Shown: piece after piece, positions 4,310-64,000 of the stretch
Layout of the letters: each line of letters begins with the position of its first letter
Numbering within the stretch: the stretch's first letter is position 1
Assembly: GCA_964406145.1 (NCBI GenBank)
Contig: CAYOQP010000004.1
Coordinates: 1,924 to 65,923, forward strand
Direction of reading: 5' to 3'
Source: an uncultured Candidatus Saccharibacteria bacterium
GTDB lineage: Bacteria; Patescibacteriota; UBA1384; XYA2-FULL-43-10; 1-14-0-10-43-13
Length of the DNA: 64,000 nt
The notes under the pieces: model-generated
Seen by the model: only the letters and a program-made list of their open reading frames with translations
What the model was told of the DNA's origin: nothing
Databases searched by the model: none
Program-made: the position numbers and the translations under genes

Positions 4310-5320
4310 ATGGAGGAAGATATGGATCAGTTCGAACAAACAACTAGCGAAAAAAAGGCCGCAAAATCTAAATTATTCATGTGGATTGGTATTCTTCTGG
4401 TCGTTCTGGTCGTTGCCGGCGGAACTTATTGGTTTTTGGTAAAAAATGATTCCGTTACAGAAGAGAATGCCAATGATCAAGTTGCTGATGCCGAAGAAGA
4501 AGCGGCCAAAGCAAAAGATCCAAGCCAATACAACTGGTCGACGATGGATCAAGGACCCTATAAGGATAGTATTGGTTATGCTATGGGCGCAAATCCGACA
4601 ACGTGGTTTGACTCTAAGATCATTTTAGCTGAGCATGCTAGTGTTCCTGATGCGATTCTGAAAAATGGCGTAATTCATGTATATTTTGTCGATGTTTCCG
4701 AAGATGGCAAACCTGAACAAATTGGTCACATCCAGTCTTCTGATAATGGTAAGACTTGGAGCAAAAAGACGATCTTAACTATCTCTGGTTTAGGAGATAA
4801 GGTTGCAGTAGATCCAAACCCATATTTATTGCCAGACGGAAAGATCAGGCTTTATTATTTTGATATTAGTAAAACCCGCACAGAAGGAACGGAAAACAAC
4901 TCAATTTACTCTGCGATTTCAGCCGATGGTATCAATTTTACAGAGGAAGAGGGTGTTCGTTTCAAATATAAGGGCATTTATGATCCTAGCGTTATTAAAG
5001 TCGGTGACGCTTGGAGATTATATGTCGGCACAGATGAAAACAATGTGCTTTCGGCCACCTCGGCTGATGGTTTGAACTTTGTTTATGAAGGGGTTGCCCT
5101 GTCTGGCGGGTCAATTCCTAAGGTGATTTATACGGATGACCTTTATTATCTCTATACTGGAGGTATTCAGATTTCAACGTCTAGCGACGGTAAGATTTTT
5201 AAAAAGACTATGGATCGATTTGATATTGGTGGACTTACGGCTGATCCTGGCGTGATCAAGCTTGCCGACGGCACTTACTTCATGGTTTATAAAACTAAGA
5301 TTGATAAGGCACAGCCTTAA
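4310..5320 (+). CDS. membrane-anchored BNR/Asp-box repeat protein (sialidase / glycoside-hydrolase-like beta-propeller)
   Basis: N-terminal TM helix (LFMWIGILLVVLVVAGG). The Asp-box S-x-D-x-G-x-T-W occurs once cleanly (SSDNGKTW at 4736-4759) and three more times in degenerate form (SADGINF, SADGLNF, SSDGKIF). Confidence 0.5.
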   Translation: MEEDMDQFEQTTSEKKAAKSKLFMWIGILLVVLVVAGGTYWFLVKNDSVTEENANDQVADAEEEAAKAKDPSQYNWSTMDQGPYKDSIGYAMGANPTTWFDSKIILAEHASVPDAILKNGVIHVYFVDVSEDGKPEQIGHIQSSDNGKTWSKKTILTISGLGDKVAVDPNPYLLPDGKIRLYYFDISKTRTEGTENNSIYSAISADGINFTEEEGVRFKYKGIYDPSVIKVGDAWRLYVGTDENNVLSATSADGLNFVYEGVALSGGSIPKVIYTDDLYYLYTGGIQISTSSDGKIFKKTMDRFDIGGLTADPGVIKLADGTYFMVYKTKIDKAQP

Positions 5321-5327
5321 GGACAAT

Positions 5328-5633
5328 ATGGAAAAAATAAAAAAAATTGGTCTTCTAAACGCACTCGGAGTTTTGATTTATATTTCTCTCGTTGCCATTT
5401 TAATAGATAATGGCGAAAAAATCTTTGGCCAGGTTAATGATTATGTCGGTCCAATAGCGTTTCTACTTCTTTTTACAATTTCGGCTGCTGCTGTTGGCGG
5501 ATTAGTCCTTGGACAGCCAATAATTCTTTATTTCGAAGAAAAGAAGAAAGAGGCGATTCAACTATTTTTCGCGATCATGGGTTGGCTTGTTCTCTTTATG
5601 GCTATTGCGCTAATTACAGCTACTCTGCTATAA
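5328..5633 (+). CDS. small membrane protein (3 predicted TM)
   Basis: ATG at 5328 follows the stop of the upstream gene. The ORF-track start at 5262 overlaps the previous CDS. Hydrophobic segments only. Confidence 0.4.
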   Translation: MEKIKKIGLLNALGVLIYISLVAILIDNGEKIFGQVNDYVGPIAFLLLFTISAAAVGGLVLGQPIILYFEEKKKEAIQLFFAIMGWLVLFMAIALITATLL

Positions 5634-7031: not shown

Positions 7032-8447
7032 ATGAAACGATCTGAACTTTTCTTTACATTTATATTGCTTCCGATTGATATCGCCATGTTCGTTTTTTCT
7101 TTTATATTGGCGTATTATTTTCGTTCTCATCTAGAAGCTCCTTTTTCAACCGATGCAAGCCTGAACACTTACATCGCTTACTCTCTTTTTCTAATTCCGG
7201 TTCTTGTTCTCTTCTTCTCGCTAAACGGTCTTTATAATAGAAGAAATTATACGGGTTACTGGTCGGAGTTTTATAAGGTAGCTGTTTCGGTTTCTACGAC
7301 AATTTTAATTTTAATTGTTGCAATATTTTTATCAAAGTCTCTTTTCTTTTCTCGTTTGATCCTTGTTTTCACTTGGGCGCTTGCCTTGTTTATGGTTTCT
7401 TTTGGTAGGGCGATGCTCAGAGTTATTGAACGATATTTTCTGCGTTACGGTATCGGGGTTAGAAATATTTTATTAGTTGGCAATAATGAAGTCTCAGAAA
7501 AAATAGCTTCAGAGCTGAAAAAACAAATCAATTCGAGCTATAGATTGATTGGTGTTGTAACAACTGAAAACGAAGCTGTATCGAACCTGAAAGTTTTAGG
7601 CGATATTGACAATATTTCGATGTTGCTCAAAAAACACAATATTGATGAAGTAGTGTTGACTGATAATGGCATCTCGAGCAAAAAGCTGATGTCTTTGATT
7701 CAGACCTGCGAAGACGGTAAGATTGATTTTAAATATGCTCCAGATTTGTTCGGTATCTTGATCAGTAGTTTTCGCCCAAGCCTAGTTGGTTCGACTTTTG
7801 TTATGGAATTAAGACGAATTCCCCTGGACGGTTGGGGCAGAATACTCAAGAGAGTTGTTGATATTGTTCTTGCTTCAATTTTATTGTTAATTTTTTCTCC
7901 AGTTATGTTGATTATTGCTATAGTAATCAAGATTACCTCTTCGGGGCCAGTATTCTATCGTCACGAGAGAATTGGTCGAGACGAAAAGAAATTCGTTTTT
8001 TATAAATTCAGATCAATGTACTGGGATAAATGTGATTTTGATGGTGGCACCAAGTGGACAACAAAAGAAGATGAAAAAACTCGAATTACACCGGTTGGTT
8101 TGATAATCAGAAAAACCAATCTTGATGAGTTGCCTCAATTTTGGAATATTTTGATTGGGGACATGAGCTTCGTTGGTCCAAGACCAGAGCAGCCTAAACT
8201 TGTTGAGAAATTCGAAAAAGAGATCCCGGAGTACTTTCGTCGCCATAGAGTAAAATCTGGTCTGACGGGGTGGGCTCAGGTTAATGGATTAAAAGGGGAC
8301 ACTTCTGTTAAAGAAAGAGTTCGATATGACATTTATTATATTGAGAACTGGTCCTTGTGGTTTGATTTTAAGATAATATTAAAGACGATAGGGCTCACTA
8401 TCCATGAAACGCTCCGTGGAAAATCTGAATATCGCACTCGTACATGA
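7032..8447 (+). CDS. polyprenyl-phosphate sugar phosphotransferase (WbaP/WcaJ-like bacterial sugar transferase)
   Basis: Four to five N-terminal TM helices, a central CoA-binding-like region, and the C-terminal catalytic block KFRSM...DELPQFWNILIGDMSFVGPRPE of the bacterial sugar transferase family. Confidence 0.85.
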   Translation: MKRSELFFTFILLPIDIAMFVFSFILAYYFRSHLEAPFSTDASLNTYIAYSLFLIPVLVLFFSLNGLYNRRNYTGYWSEFYKVAVSVSTTILILIVAIFLSKSLFFSRLILVFTWALALFMVSFGRAMLRVIERYFLRYGIGVRNILLVGNNEVSEKIASELKKQINSSYRLIGVVTTENEAVSNLKVLGDIDNISMLLKKHNIDEVVLTDNGISSKKLMSLIQTCEDGKIDFKYAPDLFGILISSFRPSLVGSTFVMELRRIPLDGWGRILKRVVDIVLASILLLIFSPVMLIIAIVIKITSSGPVFYRHERIGRDEKKFVFYKFRSMYWDKCDFDGGTKWTTKEDEKTRITPVGLIIRKTNLDELPQFWNILIGDMSFVGPRPEQPKLVEKFEKEIPEYFRRHRVKSGLTGWAQVNGLKGDTSVKERVRYDIYYIENWSLWFDFKIILKTIGLTIHETLRGKSEYRTRT

Positions 8448-29400: not shown

Positions 29401-30181
29401 GGGCGAGAAGACTGATCTTTATGAGATTCCAAGTGGCTACAAGATGATAGTTGATAATGATAGCCAAGTTGTTAAGAATCAGGTTATTGCTGAGCCGGAA
29501 TCAGGTGACGGCAAACCAGTCAGATCTGTTGTTGCTGGTCAGGTTATTATCTCCGGTAACAAAGTTAAGGTTGTCGGTGTTGGTGAAGTCTCTATCGAAT
29601 ACGCTACAGCCAAGACGACTCAGGTGCTGGTTAAGAACGGCGAGACTATCGAGAAGGGTCAAGCTTTGACCGAAGGTCACTATGATCTATCACAGAGCCT
29701 GAAGCTTAATGGACCAGTTAAAACTCAAAACTATATCATCAAACAAGTTCAGTCTATCTATGAATCACAGGGACAAGACATCAACGACAAACACATCGAA
29801 GTTATCGTTAGGATGATGAATAGCAAGGTCAAGATCTTGGAGCCTGGTAGCTCAAAGTATCTTCCAGGACAAGTTGTTTCCAAGTTTGAGGTTAATGCCA
29901 AGAATATTGGTTTCAAAGCTTCTGGCGAAAAACAGATCAAAGGTGATGACATGATTATGGGTATCACCCGAATCGCTCTTAAGACCGATTCCTTCTTGTC
30001 TGCCGCTTCGTTCCAAGAAACCACCTCAATTTTGATTGATGCCGCCGTATCTGGTCGAGTCGATTATCTGATGGGATTGAAAGAGAACGTTATCATCGGT
30101 AAATTGATTCCTGCTGGCACCGGTTTTGATCGAGAAGCGATCAAAGAAGAAGCCATTGCTGAGCTCGAAGAACAGCTTTGA
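26411..30181 (+). CDS. rpoC: DNA-directed RNA polymerase subunit beta'
   Basis: Zn-binding [35 protein letters not shown] catalytic motif. 1256 aa. Confidence 0.97.
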
Positions 30182-30237
30182 CATTCGGCTTAGTTTATGC
30201 TATTTTATTAAAGTGCAAAATTTAAATTCAAGTTTTT

Positions 30238-30651
30238 ATGCCTACAATCAACCAATTAATTAGAAAAAGTCGCAAACAGACAGTCAAGCGGTCAAAGACC
30301 ACTGCTTTGAAGACCACTTTTAACTATCTTCAGAATAAGCCAGTTAAACTCGGATCACCTCAAAAACGCGGTGTTTGTATCAAGGTTGGCACTATGACAC
30401 CGAAGAAACCAAACTCAGCTTTGCGAAAGTTTGCGCGTGTCAGATTGACCAATGGTTACGAAGTCAACGCCTATATTGGTGGTGAAGGACATAATCTTCA
30501 GGAACACTCAGTCGTATTGATCCGCGGAGGTCGTGTTAAAGACCTTCCGGGTATGCGATATCATATTGTCCGTGGCAAGCTAGACTTGACCGGAGTGCAG
30601 GGTCGAAAACAGGGACGTAGTAAATACGGTGCCAAGACAGGAAAAAGTTAA
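30238..30651 (+). CDS. rpsL: 30S ribosomal protein S12
   Basis: [10 protein letters not shown]...[10 protein letters not shown] motifs. Confidence 0.95.
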
Positions 30652-30667
30652 TTTTTAGGACTTATCG

Positions 30668-31144
30668 ATGCCAAGAGGCCATATAAAAATGAAAAAACAG
30701 GCGATCGAGCCGGATGCTAAATACAGCAATCCTACTTTAACCAAATTCATTAATTACATAATGAAAAATGGCAAAAAGACTGTCGCCACAAAGATCGTTT
30801 ACAAGTCATTGGAAAATGCTTCCGAGACACTCAAGGGAGAAGCGATTGATATTTTTGAGCAAGCCTTGAAAAATGTTGGTCCACTCGTTGAGGTTAAGAG
30901 CAAGAGAATCGGTGGCGCTAATTATCAAGTGCCAATGGAAGTTAGCCGAGACCGCAAGAATACTCTTGCGATGCGCTGGATTATTGCTGCTGCTCAGTCT
31001 GCTAAGGGCAAACCAATGCACGAGAAACTAGCTTTTGAGTTGATCAACGCTTACAACGGTGAAGGCTCAGCCATGAAGAAGAAGGAAGATACTCACAGAA
31101 TGGCTGAGGCCAACAAAGCCTTTGCTCACTTCGCTCGATTCTAA
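30668..31144 (+). CDS. rpsG: 30S ribosomal protein S7
   Basis: 158 aa. S7 blocks include KNGKKTVATKIVY...VEVKSKRIGGANYQVP. Confidence 0.93.
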   Translation: MPRGHIKMKKQAIEPDAKYSNPTLTKFINYIMKNGKKTVATKIVYKSLENASETLKGEAIDIFEQALKNVGPLVEVKSKRIGGANYQVPMEVSRDRKNTLAMRWIIAAAQSAKGKPMHEKLAFELINAYNGEGSAMKKKEDTHRMAEANKAFAHFARF

Positions 31145-31163
31145 GAATTCTACACACATATAA

Positions 31164-31200
31164 AAAGAAAGCGTCCAGTCATTGGGTGCTTTCTTTTTAT
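31164..31200. terminator. hairpin + T-tract (bidirectional terminator between rpsG and the antisense lipoprotein gene)
   Basis: AAAGAAAGC ... GCTTTCTTT 9-bp arms, then TTTTATT. Confidence 0.5.
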
Positions 31201-31229
31201 TAAAAGAATGTTTTGATAGGTGAGTGGCG

Positions 31230-31259
31230 CAGGTGGCGGCGGTTGATTGCCGCCACCTG
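31230..31259. other. GC-rich perfect hairpin (11-bp stem CAGGTGGCGGC / GCCGCCACCTG), 3' of the minus-strand lipoprotein gene
   Basis: Perfect inverted repeat with an 8-nt loop. It lies 13 nt past the lipoprotein stop on the minus strand and has no U-tract. Confidence 0.6.
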
Positions 31260-31271
31260 TCCGGTCGTGGT

Positions 31272-31754
31272 CTAGTAAACCGTTGAGTAGGTTCCGTCCG
31301 GATTGGAACGGAACAGGTGCGCGTCGTAGCTGGGCTTGGTATCATCGGGATACTCCGTGGAGTAATCCCAGACGTCAGCTTCTGCTTCGACGAGCACAAA
31401 GTAGGTCGAGGTTTTGTTGAGGGCCGCGCCGTCCCATTCGGAGACGACAAAGATCCCTTTGCCACCACCGCTGTTGCCCCAGGCTTCCATTCTCACCCAC
31501 GATTCACGCAGGTACACTTTGGAGTTCGGGTTGGCCGGATCAGTCAGTCGGTAGATACCAAACTGATTGAACTGGCCGTCGCGGCGGTTGACATAGACAG
31601 CCACACTCGAAGAATCGCGATCAACGCTGATTCCTTCAATCGAGACATGGGGCTTGCGCCCCAAGACGTCGTCGAGGGCTTCAGATGAGCACCCAGCGAA
31701 CATCAGAGTGGTGATTGCGAGGGCGATAAGCCCAAGAAGCATGCGGATTCGCAT
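31272..31754 (-). CDS. GC-rich putative lipoprotein (foreign-looking), antisense within the str operon
   Basis: Signal peptide plus lipobox MRIRMLLGLIALAITTLMFAG|CSS. GAGGAG RBS 5 nt before the ATG. GC ~55% against ~38% in the flanks. No recognisable domain. Confidence 0.6.
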   Translation of the reverse strand: MRIRMLLGLIALAITTLMFAGCSSEALDDVLGRKPHVSIEGISVDRDSSSVAVYVNRRDGQFNQFGIYRLTDPANPNSKVYLRESWVRMEAWGNSGGGKGIFVVSEWDGAALNKTSTYFVLVEAEADVWDYSTEYPDDTKPSYDAHLFRSNPDGTYSTVY

Positions 31755-31871
31755 CACGGTTCTCCTCGTTGCCTTCGCTAGAGTAACTGCAGAAGAAGGT
31801 CAACTGATTATTTTACCACTATTACTCTTAAATGTCAAGTAGATATTGCTCAAAATTGCAATTTTATCCCG

Positions 31872-31901
31872 TTGACACTTTTGGCATCTGTGTGTTAATA
31901 T
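31872..31901 (+). promoter_or_regulatory. candidate sigma70 promoter for fusA-tuf-rpsJ (TTGACA-18-TAATAT)
   Basis: Consensus -35, ~70 nt upstream of the fusA ATG. It restarts the str operon after the insertion. Confidence 0.45.
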
Positions 31902-31971
31902 AATAAGGATTTGAGGGGGAATTTTTAGTTTTGAACTTTAGAATAAAAATAATTTAAATTTAGGATTTGCT

Positions 31972-34047
<2,076 letters not shown>

Positions 34048-34173: not shown

Positions 34174-35352
34174 ATGGCTGCTGAATCATTCAAAAGAAAC
34201 AAGCCTCACGTAAACATCGGTACTATTGGTCACGTTGACCACGGTAAAACAACCTTGACTGCTGCTATCACAACCGTTCTTGCTAAGAAGGGTCTAGCTC
34301 AGGCAAGAAAATTTGCTGATATCGACAACGCTCCAGAAGAAAAAGAGCGTGGCATTACTATCGCAACTTCACACCAAGAGTATGAGACCGAGAAGAGACA
34401 CTATGCTCACGTTGACTGTCCGGGACACGCTGACTATGTTAAAAACATGATCACCGGTGCTGCACAGATGGACGGTGCAATTTTGGTTGTTGCTGCTACT
34501 GACGGCCCTATGCCTCAGACCAGAGAGCACATCCTTCTTGCAAATCAGATCGGTGTTCCTGCTATCGTTGTTTATCTCAACAAGTGCGATATGGTTGATG
34601 ACGAAGAGTTGATCGACCTAGTCGAGATGGAAGTCAGAGAACTTCTAACAAAATACAAGTATGATGGCGATAACGCCAAGATTATTCGTGGTTCAGCTCT
34701 TAAAGCTCTTGAGGGTGATGCCAAATGGGAGAAATCAATCGATGAATTGATGGATGCCGTTGATGAAGCTATCCCAGAGCCAAAAAGAGAAATTGACAAG
34801 CCTTTCCTTATGCCTGTTGAAGATGTTTTCTCAATCAAGGGTCGTGGCACGGTTGCAACTGGTAGAATTGAGCAGGGTATTGTCAAAATCAATGACACTG
34901 TCGAGATCGTCGGTATCAGAAAAACCAGAAACACAGTTGTTACCGGTGTTGAGATGTTTAAGAAACAGCTCGATCAGGGACAAGCTGGCGACAATGTTGG
35001 TCTTCTTCTTCGTGGTATTGAGCGTGAAGATATCGAGCGCGGTCAAGTTTTGGCCAAGCCAGGTAGTATCACTCCTCATACCGATTTCGAAGCTGAAATG
35101 TATGCTTTGACAAAAGAAGAAGGCGGACGACACACCCCATTCTTCAAAGGCTACAAACCTCAGTTCTACATCAGAACAACTGACGTTACCGGCGACATCA
35201 CTTTTGATCAGGAAATGATCATGCCTGGTGACAATGCCACCGTTAAAGTAACTTTGATTCAACCAATCGCCATGGACGAAGGTTTGAAATTTGCCATTCG
35301 TGAAGGCGGTCGAACAGTCGGTGCGGGTGTTGTAACAAAGATCACTAAATAA
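34174..35352 (+). CDS. tuf: elongation factor Tu
   Basis: [36 protein letters not shown]. 392 aa. Confidence 0.97.
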
Positions 35353-35371: not shown

Positions 35372-35698
35372 ATGTCAGTAGATAAAACAGCAGTACGTCA
35401 AAAAATTAGAATTCGCCTCAAGGCCTACGATCATCGCATTATCGACAAATCGGCCCAGCAAATTATAGATACAGCTATCCGCTCAGGAGCTGTTGTCGCT
35501 GGACCAATTCCTCTTCCTACGGAGGTCAATAAAATCACGGTCTTGAAATCAACTCACGTTCATAAGGACGCCCGCGAACAGTTCGAGATGCGAACCCACA
35601 AACGTTTGATTGATATTCTAAATCCAAGTCCCAAGACGATTGACAACCTCATGAGTCTCGATTTGCCTCACGGCGTCGACATTGAAATCAAGATGTAG
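35372..35698 (+). CDS. rpsJ: 30S ribosomal protein S10
   Basis: [40 protein letters not shown]. Confidence 0.93.
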
Positions 35699-35899
35699 TT
35701 TAAAGTTTCAGGGCCCAATATTTCTTAACGGGCCTTGGACTTTTGACTAGAAGCGTTGACTTTCTAGCTCAAATAGGGTAAGTTTATAGAGTTACACGAG
35801 TGATAATGATACTCAAGTGACGAGTCATGGATATCACCCCATCATCCGATAGGGTAGATCTAGGACATTTATAAAGTTGTATCGGAATTATTTAGACAT

Positions 35900-36235
35900 A
35901 TGGGCCCTGCCCACTGTCTGGATAATTCCTAACACGTTAGCCGAGGGCGTGCTGGGTGAAACAACAAAGCCCTCGGCTCGGTGCGAGACGTAGCAAGCTG
36001 GCGAGTGCATCTCTGCCGCTGCTTTCCTCGCATCGACGGGGGCATGATATACATGAGCGGTTGTTTACCGCCGTGACCCGAGCCATCAAGGCTCCGTGCC
36101 CCCGAACAATTTTATGAGAGCTCTGCTCTCACTCACTGGCGAGTTCGCCAGGAGTTACCGCCGCGAGTGCGGCACATCCGGTCGGAGACGGAAAGGAAGG
36201 TTTGCCCCTTTCCGTCTCCACCACAATTATAAAAA
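35900..36235. other. GC-rich, non-coding, highly structured island (candidate structured RNA or foreign-DNA remnant) between rpsJ and rplC
   Basis: No ORF of 60 aa or more on either strand. GC is well above the flanks. Several perfect stems are visible: GCCGAGGGC/GCCCTCGGC (9 bp), CGGGGGCA/TGCCCCCG (long-range), GGAGACGGAAAGG/CCTTTCCGTCTCC (13 bp), CTGGCG/CGCCAG. Confidence 0.45.
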
Positions 36236-36241
36236 AGAACA

Positions 36242-58949: not shown

Positions 58950-59013
58950 CATTAATATAAATTATGATATAGTAATCACAATCCTGAAACTCTGGGCATG
59001 AAAGGTGGTTACC

Positions 59014-59367
59014 ATGAAGCGTATCGCTGTGCCGGCAGTATTTCTGTCGGTTTTGTTTTTCCTGCTGGTCGGTCTTCTTGTCCGATCAATGAATGTTTCG
59101 GCAAAAACGCTGAAGCTGGCTGAAGACCAGCAAGTTCTCATTAGGGCACAAGCCCAAACCATCAAGTTGTTGAAGAAAGACAATGAAAGATGGTCGGAAA
59201 ATCTTCTCGAATCGCAGCAGAAGCTCTCCGAAGTGATTGACATGCAGTCGGGCGTGATTCGCTCGCTTAATCGTGACATCACTCGGACAAGACGCGAAAA
59301 CCTTGAGCTCAATAAGCGGCTCTCGCTGCTTTCTCGAGATCAGAAAGGTGAAGTTGCGCACCAATGA
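59014..59367 (+). CDS. GC-rich hypothetical membrane-anchored coiled-coil protein
   Basis: AAAGGTGG RBS 6 nt before the ATG at 59014. TM helix IAVPAVFLSVLFFLLVGLLV, then a heptad-rich coiled coil. Codons are GC-rich (CTG/CCG/GTC), unlike the neighbouring genes. Confidence 0.5.
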   Translation: MKRIAVPAVFLSVLFFLLVGLLVRSMNVSAKTLKLAEDQQVLIRAQAQTIKLLKKDNERWSENLLESQQKLSEVIDMQSGVIRSLNRDITRTRRENLELNKRLSLLSRDQKGEVAHQ

Positions 59368-61157: not shown

Positions 61158-64000
61158 CTACACCACAATACTGACAAGTTTTTTTGGAACAACAATAGTC
61201 TTTAGAATTTTCCGATCTTTTATTATGTCGGTGACTTTTTCGGACGAAAGGGCTATTTTTTTCATTTCTTCTTCTGATATTTGGGCATCGACAGAAATCT
61301 TATCTCTGACTTTGCCATTTATCTGGATGACTATCTCTATTTTTTCCGCAATCAGATACTTTTTATCTGGCCCTGGCCACACTGATTCACTAATATCTTT
61401 TTTGCTGTCCAGGCTATACCAAATTTCAGAAGCAATATGAGGTGCCGCAACAAACAACAAAGTTAGAAAAATTTTATAAGATTCTTCCGAAATCACCCCA
61501 GCTTTTTCAATAGCATTATTTAACTCCATAAGTTTAGAAACGACAGTGTTCATCCGAAAGTTCTCAAGATCTTCAGTTATGCCAACAATAGATTGATTTA
61601 TCTTCACAAGAAGATCTTTTGTATCTGGCTTATTATTTACTAGATCTTGGTTCTTCCAGACTCGTTTTAAAAACCGGTGAACTCCTTGAACGCCAGCAGT
61701 GCTCCATGCCGATTCTTGGTCATAGGGACCAATAAACATTATATAGCTTCTTAGTGTATCAGCGCCAAATTGACTAGCGATGTCGTCCGGATTGATAACA
61801 TTGCCAAATGATTTGCTCATTTTACGGCCATCGGGGCCGAGAATTATACCGTGAGCAATTCTTTTCGCATATGGTTCTGGTGTCGGAACGACTCCTAGAT
61901 CAAACAAAAATTTATGCCAAAAACGAGAATATAGTAAATGAAGGGTGGTGTGTTCCATGCCACCATTATAAAAATCAACCGGCATCCAATATTTTAGGGA
62001 ATTGTGAGAAGCAAACTCCTTGTCATTTTGCGAATCGCAGTAACGTAAAAAGTACCAGCTTGATCCGGCCCAGTTGGGCATCGTGTCCGTTTCGCGTCTT
62101 GCGTAGCCAGCACATTTAGGACAAGTTGTATTGACCCAATCTGTTATTTTGGCGAGAGGGGATTCACCAGTGTCTGTTGGCTCGTAATTCTCTACATTTG
62201 GCAAGGTAACTGGCAATTGATCTTCAGGAATGGGCACGACACCACATTGATCGCAATGGACGACAGGAATGGGCTCACCCCAATAGTGCTGTCGGGAAAA
62301 TATCCAGTCTCTGAGCTTATAATTAACACTGAAATCACCAGCCCGGATAGTTTTTAATTTCTCAGTTATTTTGTCCTTACCCTCCTTGGAGGTAAGTCCG
62401 TCAAATTCGCCGGAATTTGTCATTGTGCCGTAATCGGTAAAAGCGTAATTACCCGAAAAATACCATTCAAAGCCGATCTTATTGTCGGGAAATGTACATT
62501 TTTCTAGACACTCTTTTTCTGTCAGCCAGATTGCTTTATGCCTTTTGAGCTCCTCATCTGCAACATGTTCTGGTTTTTCGTCGAGAAGTTCGCAGTAGAT
62601 AAAATTGCCATATCTTAATCTCTTTACATTTTTATGTGGTGCAAAAAAGTGCGATTTGACAGTGACGCCGATTTTCTCGATTGCCTTCACTTTGTATCCA
62701 GTTTCCTCAAAGACCTCTCTTTCGGCCGTATCAAACATCTCTTCATTTTCTTCGATGCCCCCGATGACCGGCACCGTCCACTTAAATTCCGGCCAATCAA
62801 GCATCAAAAACTTTCCATCTGATTTGCGTTTTACTATTGCAACAATGGTGTGTCTTTCTTCTTCGCCTTCTTTTATCTCGCCAAATTCTGGAATAATCAC
62901 TTCCTTAATTGGAATTTCATGTTTCTTGGCAAATTCCCAGTCCCGACTATCATGAGCGGGTACAGCCATGATAGCACCAGTGCCGTAATTAGCAAGGACA
63001 TAGTCAGCAACATAGATATCAACGTTTTCATTATTGATCGGATTAACGGCGTAGACGCCATAGAGCTTGACCCCAGACTTATCCTTAGCAAGATCGGTTC
63101 GCTCTAGATCTGACTTATTCTTGGCTTTCTGAACATATTTGGCCACTTCGTCAAAATTTTGAATATGGTGGCCTAATTTTTCAACCAACGGATGTTCTGG
63201 TGCTAAGACTACATAAGTACAACCAAATAGAGTATCGGCACGGGTAGTAAATACTTCGATCTCTTCGTCTTTGACTGTGCCGCTGCGACTCTTAACTTGA
63301 AATCGAATGTTGGCGCCGACACTTTTGCCAATCCAATTAATCTGCTGAGTCTTTATCTTATCAAGATAATCAACTGTCTCGAGACCAGTAATTAATTTGT
63401 CAGCATATGAAGTGATGCGTAGCATCCACTGCTTTTGATTGCGTTTGCTTGCTTGTGTACCACAACGTTCACAATTGCCAGCCACGACTTCTTCGTTGGC
63501 GAGAATTGTCTTACATGAAGGGCACCAATTGACAGGCATCTCAGCCTGAAAAGCCAATCTAGGAGTGGTCTTGTCATCATCAGAAACTTCGACTAATTTA
63601 TCATCAACGATTGCGTGTTTGTAAAACTGCAAAAATATCCATTGAGTCCACTTGTAGTAATTTGGATCTGTAGTGTTAACTTCGCGGCTCCAATCGAAGC
63701 AATAGCCCAGAGACTGCATTTGCTTTTTGAATGTAGCAACATTGTCCTCTGTGGCTTTTTGCGGCTTAATCTTGTTTCTAATTGCATAATTTTCAGTTGG
63801 AAGACCAAAAGCATCCCAGCCCATGGGATACATAACATTGTATCCTTGAAGTCTTTTCATTCTACAATAGGCATCAGAGGCGCCATAGCCCATGCAGTGA
63901 CCCACATGAAGCCCCGCCCCCGAAGGATAGGGGAATTCGACTAAATGATAGTGCTTGGGCTTATCGGAGCTGTCTTTGGAAAATCCGTATTTTTGCTCAG
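61158..64000 (-). CDS. leuS: leucine--tRNA ligase, 5'-partial (N-terminus beyond window end), carrying an inserted Nudix hydrolase domain
   Basis: The frame stays open to the window edge (…FPYPSGAGLHVGHCMGYGASDAYCRMKR). Also seen: ZN-1 CPSCKT...CERCG, the editing domain, KMSKS (KMSKSFGNV) and the anticodon-binding and C-terminal domains. Residues ~338-497 (nt 62415-62894) form a Nudix fold with the box GGIEENEEMFDTAEREVFEETGY. Confidence 0.93.
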   Translation of the reverse strand, partial: EQKYGFSKDSSDKPKHYHLVEFPYPSGAGLHVGHCMGYGASDAYCRMKRLQGYNVMYPMGWDAFGLPTENYAIRNKIKPQKATEDNVATFKKQMQSLGYCFDWSREVNTTDPNYYKWTQWIFLQFYKHAIVDDKLVEVSDDDKTTPRLAFQAEMPVNWCPSCKTILANEEVVAGNCERCGTQASKRNQKQWMLRITSYADKLITGLETVDYLDKIKTQQINWIGKSVGANIRFQVKSRSGTVKDEEIEVFTTRADTLFGCTYVVLAPEHPLVEKLGHHIQNFDEVAKYVQKAKNKSDLERTDLAKDKSGVKLYGVYAVNPINNENVDIYVADYVLANYGTGAIMAVPAHDSRDWEFAKKHEIPIKEVIIPEFGEIKEGEEERHTIVAIVKRKSDGKFLMLDWPEFKWTVPVIGGIEENEEMFDTAEREVFEETGYKVKAIEKIGVTVKSHFFAPHKNVKRLRYGNFIYCELLDEKPEHVADEELKRHKAIWLTEKECLEKCTFPDNKIGFEWYFSGNYAFTDYGTMTNSGEFDGLTSKEGKDKITEKLKTIRAGDFSVNYKLRDWIFSRQHYWGEPIPVVHCDQCGVVPIPEDQLPVTLPNVENYEPTDTGESPLAKITDWVNTTCPKCAGYARRETDTMPNWAGSSWYFLRYCDSQNDKEFASHNSLKYWMPVDFYNGGMEHTTLHLLYSRFWHKFLFDLGVVPTPEPYAKRIAHGIILGPDGRKMSKSFGNVINPDDIASQFGADTLRSYIMFIGPYDQESAWSTAGVQGVHRFLKRVWKNQDLVNNKPDTKDLLVKINQSIVGITEDLENFRMNTVVSKLMELNNAIEKAGVISEESYKIFLTLLFVAAPHIASEIWYSLDSKKDISESVWPGPDKKYLIAEKIEIVIQINGKVRDKISVDAQISEEEMKKIALSSEKVTDIIKDRKILKTIVVPKKLVSIVV

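Follow-up and report, generated by a model that had tools for sequence, protein, structure and literature searches.

The rpsG-fusA junction of the str operon is occupied, in the 64,000-nucleotide stretch of contig CAYOQP010000004.1 analysed here (the window), by a GC-rich open reading frame (ORF) on the opposite strand that encodes a 160-residue putative lipoprotein. We consider it likely that this ORF is functional and transcribed on its own, that it encodes a small surface lipoprotein, and that it belongs to a clade-restricted family whose members usually occupy a variable slot at the rpsG-fusA junction. As judged from its sequences, the family appears to be undescribed, fast-evolving, small and restricted to a Berkelbacteria-like clade of Patescibacteria (the candidate phyla radiation, CPR), and with a structural model added its products are predicted to form a new family of lipid-anchored, immunoglobulin (Ig)-like surface proteins that belongs to no described family. 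An earlier interpretation made from the DNA letters (the sequence-only reading) had correctly located the antisense gene, its 160 codons, its lipobox and its GAGGAG ribosome-binding site, and had attributed its composition and codon usage to acquisition from a high-GC donor; the anomaly is real, but relatives carry a homologue at the same locus.

The recurrence of the arrangement is what carries our reading. The order rpsL-rpsG followed by a convergent lipoprotein gene is found in the window and at the loci of P0002, P0003, P0004, P0006, P0013, P0014 and P0015, and the same placement, convergent with rpsG, occurs in at least eight diverged lineages, down to 24% protein identity. Searching the loci of relatives with tblastn revealed minus-strand homologues, 32-37% identical, just 3' of rpsG in L005 (Berkelbacteria CG10_43_13) and L006, and a further homologue, in L008, was added by inspection of the loci. 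P0008 is found 5' of fusA, separated from it by two further genes, and P0012 lies within a 7-kb, nine-gene rpsG-fusA island on a 165-kb contig. The sequence-only reading had proposed comparison with sister genomes, looking for an uninterrupted rpsG-fusA junction; the sister lineage and distant relatives instead carry the homologue there. Apart from the contig L094, homologues with readable context sit in low- or mid-GC genomes beside ribosomal genes like those of the window. On L094 (Logan SRR24319159) the family gene is found between genes for peptide deformylase and a PTP-like phosphatase, near ThiF/E2-like and AAA+ genes, and its GC content is below that of the sequence around it.

Searched with the single sequence, 5.8 billion clustered proteins yielded only the protein itself and P0002, an 84%-identical protein of the sister lineage that is present on two ENA contigs of different assemblies. 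A profile scan of 1.84 billion representative proteins gave 14 matches, 13 of which are plausible clusters (the window's own included) that stand for 1-5 sequences each, while the fourteenth looks spurious; a homology search seeded with 16 sequences recovered fewer members than this exhaustive scan. The closest homologue outside the sister lineage is only ~40% identical. Nonetheless all 16 aligned members share the signal-peptide layout, with Gly21 and Cys22 invariant. The family's profile hidden Markov model (HMM) matched only L005, L006 and L008 among 80 species representatives and matched none of 80 metagenome loci (those with EF-G at most 67% identical, among the matches listed). Searches of Pfam, NCBIfam, PHROG, PADLOC and PDB sequences gave no relationship to the protein or the family, the returns being sub-threshold noise (FG-GAP_3, E = 0.025; Cnm, E = 0.023; Cor in one of the 16 members), and full-text literature searches found no report of the gene or of its arrangement.

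By the similarity of its S7 and EF-G the host is a Berkelbacteria-like CPR bacterium and not a member of the Saccharibacteria. The best S7 matches (70-78%) come from metagenome-assembled genomes labelled Patescibacteria, Candidatus Berkelbacteria or, generically, third-party annotation (TPA) 'uncultured Candidatus Saccharibacteria', and the named genomes among the closest of them are Berkelbacteria. The EF-G of the closest relatives is 77-90% identical over the best-matching segment, and no species representative is conspecific with the window genome. The Saccharibacteria-like epibiont supposed by the sequence-only reading is thus replaced by a Berkelbacteria-like host.

The compositional contrast is sharp. 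The lipoprotein ORF has a GC content of 56.0% (z = 4.3) in a window of 40.0%, slightly richer than the ~38% that had been quoted; GC steps abruptly on both sides of the gene, and the region contains the highest-GC 486-bp segment of all 64 kb. At third codon positions the GC content (GC3) is 0.677, against 0.352 ± 0.049 in the 55 other window genes (z = 6.6), with only a mild rise at first and second positions (z about 1.5-1.7), and the codon-adaptation index against the window's own usage is low (z = -5.8). The GC scan and codon-adaptation test that had been proposed as checks therefore bear out the anomaly itself. Across the family the gene's GC is 49-61%, the GC3 of neighbouring housekeeping genes ranges from 0.39 to 0.61, and lipoprotein GC3 does not follow that of neighbours or host (Spearman -0.45, not significant). 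The gene exceeds its neighbours in GC3 in seven of nine independent lineages (eight of ten tabulated loci, two of them from a single lineage). Its GC3 lies 0.28 above theirs in the window and 0.31 above in the CG10 lineage; in the 48%-GC host L098 the two are nearly equal, and in L094 the gene falls below its neighbours. The family's GC is native-like in hosts of 48-57% GC and anomalous in hosts of 40-46% GC. The window and sister copies each have a GC3 of 0.68 after a synonymous divergence (dS) of ~1, and changes between G or C and A or T are symmetric between them (27 versus 28).

These comparisons suggest that high GC is continuously maintained within the family regardless of how GC-rich the host is, possibly by selection acting on the sequence or the mRNA, or by GC-biased repair at a recombination-prone locus. 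A relic of one recent transfer seems unlikely, because members only 25-40% identical, whose synonymous sites must have been saturated repeatedly, remain GC-rich; a force that keeps the gene GC-rich is, we infer, the more parsimonious explanation. If the gene were foreign and ameliorating, its donor would have to be unsampled, given that the closest protein outside the sister lineage is so distant. An ancient transfer, or transfers within the clade, are possible.

The slot itself is variable. The window keeps the order rpsL, rpsG, fusA and tuf on one strand, as in the canonical str operon and as the sequence-only reading emphasized, but not the canonical adjacency of rpsG and fusA: a terminator, the antisense gene and a separate fusA promoter intervene, in a gap of 827 bp with one minus-strand ORF. 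The junction is not inviolate elsewhere either, since the gap is at least 300 bp in 31 of the 68 Patescibacteria relatives where rpsG and fusA could both be placed, and at least 700 bp in eight of the nine members of the closest clade. Gap sizes reach 3.7 kb among loci L004-L083 and 7 kb in L098, and content differs among close relatives, over a range of 0.7 to 7 kb and with orphan genes included; the intervening ORFs examined in L098, L093 and L004 had no Pfam match. Genes seem to have turned over repeatedly at the rpsG-fusA junction of Patescibacteria, which is less inviolate in the phylum than had been assumed, and its occupation here is therefore less surprising.

Other occupants of the slot include further lipoproteins. 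L004, the closest species representative (S7 78%), encodes a 225-residue lipoprotein (4686-5363, minus strand; lipobox LMSG-C; 51% GC versus 44%) in the same position and orientation. Its homology to the family is not demonstrable (no HMM match; hhalign probability 55%), and it is either a replacement or a case of extreme divergence. In L098 a second lipoprotein of 210 residues (7343-7975, plus strand; lipobox YGG-C) lies two genes downstream of P0012 and is a probable remote paralogue of it (hhalign probability 92.7%, E = 4e-7). Small antisense gap ORFs of Doudnabacteria that a crude pattern had picked out as lipoproteins proved on inspection to be false positives. In independent assemblies (L086-L089, L005, JGI and ENA), contigs repeatedly stop on the fusA side of the lipoprotein gene, 95-260 bp 5' of it. 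L086 and L089 encode an identical protein with unrelated sequence upstream of its promoter, and the sequences of two Berkelbacteria CG10 assemblies part just 5' of the lipoprotein promoter; these observations suggest that the slot varies in structure between strains.

These data are best matched by vertical descent combined with rapid divergence and the occasional loss or replacement of the gene, with intra-clade exchange possible. Several findings weigh against this history, or against the wider reading of a clade-restricted surface lipoprotein resident in the slot. Among the closest seven species representatives, only three carry the family at the locus, a fourth encodes there a lipoprotein that is either unrelated or not recognisable as one of the family, and in two the slot is taken by different ORFs; because the distribution is so patchy, gain, loss or replacement within the slot occurs, and descent need not have been strictly vertical. 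Between S7 and the lipoprotein, distances show little correlation (rho 0.25, not significant). P0007 lies in the different neighbourhood of L094, a 57%-GC contig of unclassified taxonomy. By a rough two-state estimate, neutral decay from an ancestor with a GC3 of ~0.78 is arithmetically possible. The assignment of function, finally, draws on a signal peptide and a generic fold that has no significant structural match.

The alternative that survives best holds that the ultra-conserved rpsG and fusA flanks act as anchors for homologous recombination, by which related CPR populations trade surface-protein genes; the copies would derive from higher-GC relatives (48-57% GC), or frequent recombination would push GC up by biased repair, or both. 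The varying content of the slot, with its orphan genes and the apparently unrelated L004 lipoprotein, would be expected from such exchange, as would the weak correlation of distances and the dependence of the GC contrast on host GC, and both the contig breaks and the divergence of the two CG10 assemblies can be read in the same way. Those breaks could, however, stem from ordinary strain micro-diversity or coverage effects. Recombination breakpoints are not demonstrated, diverged hosts share no near-identical copies, and L086 and L006, the one close pair by S7 (84%), are closest in their lipoproteins too (49%), which is what vertical descent would predict. We regard exchange of this kind as unlikely to be the principal explanation. 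Somewhat more doubtful still is a dedicated 'surface-protein slot' at the Berkelbacteria-like rpsG-fusA junction, in which anchored exchange or replacement of fast-evolving lipoprotein cassettes would be combined with frequent recombination and its GC-biased repair, or with selection on the antisense transcript, that holds GC 10-16 points above the genome, and in which pairing with the fusA promoter would couple expression to translation.

That the gene was acquired recently from some high-GC donor, for instance an actinobacterial host, and that the anomaly is an un-ameliorated donor signature, is very improbable. Such an origin would account for the size of the GC3 and codon-adaptation deviations and for the solitary orientation of the gene, which is the sole non-shadow minus-strand ORF of at least 120 residues between ~4.3 and 59.4 kb of the window, the only antisense gene in about 55 kb. 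Yet neither the 5.8 billion clustered nor the 1.84 billion representative proteins contain a homologue beyond the small family, no family member among the latter carries an actinobacterial annotation, and no examinable contig is actinobacterial. The ~40% identity of the closest non-sister homologue, the occupation of the same locus in the diverged lineages, the equal GC3 of the sister copy and the Berkelbacteria-like rather than saccharibacterial host all argue in the same direction. Moreover, the borders of the window copy have no meaningful flanking direct repeats, the 0.8-kb gap contains no integrase or other mobility gene, and there is no tRNA in the window. Three of four signs by which a recent high-GC import might be recognised (donor homologues, absence from the locus in relatives, and marks of mobility) failed, and only the fourth, deviant composition, was found.

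The lipoprotein ORF is a real gene under strong purifying selection. Compared with the sister copy L002, nonsynonymous divergence (dN) is 0.107 and dS 0.96 (dN/dS 0.11), and the 99 differences fall 20/13/66 at codon positions 1/2/3. Long chance ORFs do arise on both strands of GC-rich DNA, and a 123-residue plus-strand ORF overlaps the gene here, but the notion of a chance reading frame in a GC-rich non-coding or RNA element has a negligible probability, given that changes are concentrated at third positions of the minus-strand frame, that stop codons break up the plus-strand shadow ORF of the sister copy, that signal peptide and lipobox are kept across 16 members, that a confident fold is predicted, and that Rfam has no match in 31100-32000 or in the whole window.

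The join is equally secure. Logan contig L001 (SRR12261225) encodes the identical protein and matches window positions 31073-32228 at 99.9% (one mismatch), spanning both junctions, and a JGI contig carries the identical protein together with rpsG, rpsL and rpoC. The two ENA contigs of the sister lineage align to window positions 31106-31914 with 82% of nucleotides identical, a span that runs out of the 3' end of rpsG and reaches the fusA promoter. An assembly chimera or mis-join that put a high-GC fragment of another organism into a CPR contig, a possibility that the sequence-only reading had raised and that the abrupt GC steps and the breaks of some other assemblies near the gene might recall, can be dismissed for practical purposes because four independent assemblies cover the junctions, and because the non-coding junction sequences are conserved and many relatives share the arrangement.

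Sequence signals around the gene (Table 1) lead us to propose that the str cluster is transcribed as three units: rpsL-rpsG, the antisense lipoprotein gene and fusA-tuf. The promoter with a TTGACA box that had been assigned to fusA is present, and the lipoprotein gene has a promoter of its own, not previously mentioned; the two are arranged back-to-back, with their -35 boxes 33 bp apart. An equivalent promoter (TTGACA-17-TATGTT) lies upstream of the Berkelbacteria CG10 homologue. The bidirectional terminator proposed to follow rpsG is also confirmed, as an inverted repeat (arms 31160-31177 and 31183-31200) with a folding energy of -19.6 kcal/mol (z = -6.3); it was found as a repeat and by folding, and is absent from the list of a simple terminator scan. 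By its sequence it could end both the rpsG transcript and the convergent lipoprotein transcript. In the sister lineage the terminator is 93% identical, the lipoprotein promoter 90% and the fusA promoter 100%.

The perfect 11-bp GC hairpin described in the sequence-only reading is likewise where it was placed, and it is unique in the window (one 11-nucleotide perfect inverted repeat versus none expected by chance). Its arms (31230-31240 and 31249-31259) enclose an 8-nucleotide loop, and its folding energy is -26 kcal/mol (z = -5.2), without a U-tract. The hairpin with its flanks (31227-31271) is identical in the sister lineage at 44 of 45 positions (98%) although dS is ~1, whereas the adjoining, neutral-looking spacer (31201-31226) is 54% identical, which argues that the hairpin is under constraint. 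A GC-rich hairpin (-26 to -37 kcal/mol) lies 10-22 nucleotides past the stop codon in 11 of 13 family loci; the stem sequences differ, with a C-GCAA-G tetraloop in four loci, and the A/T-flanked terminator beside rpsG usually comes after the GC hairpin. The window hairpin is probably the 3'-end hairpin of the lipoprotein mRNA, and a structure that is kept while its sequence is not would suit a function in generating the 3' end of the message or in shielding it.

The encoded product has the features of a bacterial lipoprotein and is a predicted substrate of Lgt and LspA. Its N-terminus, MRIRMLLGLIALAITTLMFAG followed by CSSE, comprises a basic n-region, a hydrophobic core and a lipobox cysteine at position 22; the signal peptide can be written as MRIR plus LLGLIALAITTLMF, with a 14-residue hydrophobic core. 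An in-frame GTG is found at 31757, one codon 5' of the ATG. The AlphaFold model, built on a five-sequence alignment, has a mean predicted local distance difference test score (pLDDT) of 81 and a predicted template-modelling score (pTM) of 0.70, and consists of a signal-peptide helix (residues 2-20), a low-confidence tether (20-30) and a nine-strand β-sandwich (39-159). After processing by Lgt and LspA, Cys22 would anchor the protein in the outer face of the cytoplasmic membrane, with a flexible tether of roughly 15 residues displaying a single Ig-like β-sandwich domain. Foldseek gave nothing at E ≤ 0.001 against either the PDB (best E = 0.012) or BFVD (best E = 0.0038). The family alignment contains conserved structural motifs (KP-P-I, LDR-SS, TYY and DY) and no evident catalytic or metal-binding columns. 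The protein probably serves as a surface binding or structural module, in adhesion, host or partner contact, or envelope organisation, and its rapid divergence relative to S7 and EF-G would be typical of exposed proteins.

Table 1. Features of the rpsG-fusA region and its flanks, in window coordinates
Feature	Position	Strand	Basis or remark
Promoter-like site of rpsL-rpsG (TTGACA-17-TATTTT, TG-extended)	30178-30206	+	Consensus scan; in 56-bp rpoC-rpsL spacer
rpsL (ribosomal protein S12)	30238-30651	+	ORF and translation; Pfam S12 on syntenic genes of relatives
rpsG (ribosomal protein S7)	30668-31144	+	ORF and translation; 47-78% identical to S7 of Patescibacteria relatives
Predicted bidirectional intrinsic terminator (A-run, 18-nucleotide arms, T-run)	31160-31200	.	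Common to rpsG and convergent lipoprotein gene
Perfect 11-bp GC stem-loop	31230-31259	-	12 nucleotides 3' of lipoprotein stop codon
Lipoprotein gene (160 residues and TAG stop)	31272-31754	-	ATG start; dN/dS; family; AlphaFold model
Predicted signal peptide (residues 1-21) and lipobox Cys22 (F-A-G-C)	31689-31754	-	Sequence; family alignment; model
Shine-Dalgarno sequence GAGGAG	31762-31767	-	7 nucleotides ahead of lipoprotein ATG; GGGAG in sister L002/L003
Predicted lipoprotein promoter (TTGACA-17-TAAAAT, extended -10 TG)	31810-31838	-	Consensus scan, 11/12 matches
Predicted fusA promoter (TTGACA-18-TAATAT, TG)	31872-31901	+	Consensus scan
fusA (EF-G)	31972-34047	+	ORF and translation
tuf	34174-35352	+	3' of fusA
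rpsJ	35372-35698	+	3' of tuf

Three other loci in the window stand out. The rpsJ-rplC spacer (35699-36241), 543 bp inside the S10 cluster, contains no ORF longer than ~60 codons (genetic code 11) and, read from the sequence, a promoter-like TTGACT-17-TAAGTT near 35757-35785. Within it, 426 nucleotides of 55% GC (35810-36235) fold at -207 kcal/mol (z = -11.7 on the plus strand, -10.5 on the minus strand), and the structure ends in a strong hairpin 20 nucleotides before the rplC start; the spacer has no Rfam or tmRNA match. The corresponding spacer of L098 is also structured (z = -6.8), with no sequence similarity by nhmmer. This element could be an unannotated RNA, or else the rplC operon could have a long structured leader here. 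At the end of a long plus-strand gene block, an orphan ORF of 120 residues (59005-59367, plus strand) with an N-terminal transmembrane helix, a coiled-coil-like tail and no Pfam match has the highest GC3 (0.545) of the 55 other genes. The leucyl-tRNA synthetase gene (61158-63905, minus strand) encodes a NUDIX domain match (residues 350-472, E = 7.5e-11), inserted behind the editing domain.

For genome interpretation, the lesson of this locus is that a sharp GC and codon anomaly in a core operon is insufficient to call recent horizontal transfer: the 'foreign-looking' gene is here a conserved, clade-specific resident. The family provides one of few candidate surface molecules of Berkelbacteria-like bacteria, and its persistent GC excess poses a small problem of its own, that of selection or biased gene conversion in a reduced genome.

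Several known systems invite comparison. The phage superinfection-exclusion lipoproteins Cor and Llp are, like the present protein, products of small, stand-alone, compositionally odd genes, but the one family member of 16 that matches PHROG 1119 (Cor; E = 0.0045) probably does so via its signal peptide, and a single-protein scan of viral contigs and a search of viral structures gave no relative, nor is there any prophage context. Lipoproteins processed by Lgt and LspA (of the PROSITE PS51257 type) share with the predicted protein the layout of n-region, core, lipobox and tether plus globular domain, whereas no sequence relationship links it to any named lipoprotein family. The modelled fold invites comparison with Ig-like β-sandwich domains such as those of the S-layer protein SbsC, CopC and immunoglobulin constant domains, from which the protein differs in sequence (3-13% identity) and to which Foldseek gave no match at E ≤ 0.001. 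Copper sites of CopC use a free N-terminal His, which the lipoprotein would lack because the mature protein begins with the lipidated Cys. The arrangement itself can be compared with lineage-specific genes inserted in conserved ribosomal and translation blocks, where, as here, the flanking gene order is preserved; those insertions lie between operons, whereas this one lies inside the str operon, between rpsG and fusA, as a single antisense gene with its own predicted promoter and terminators.

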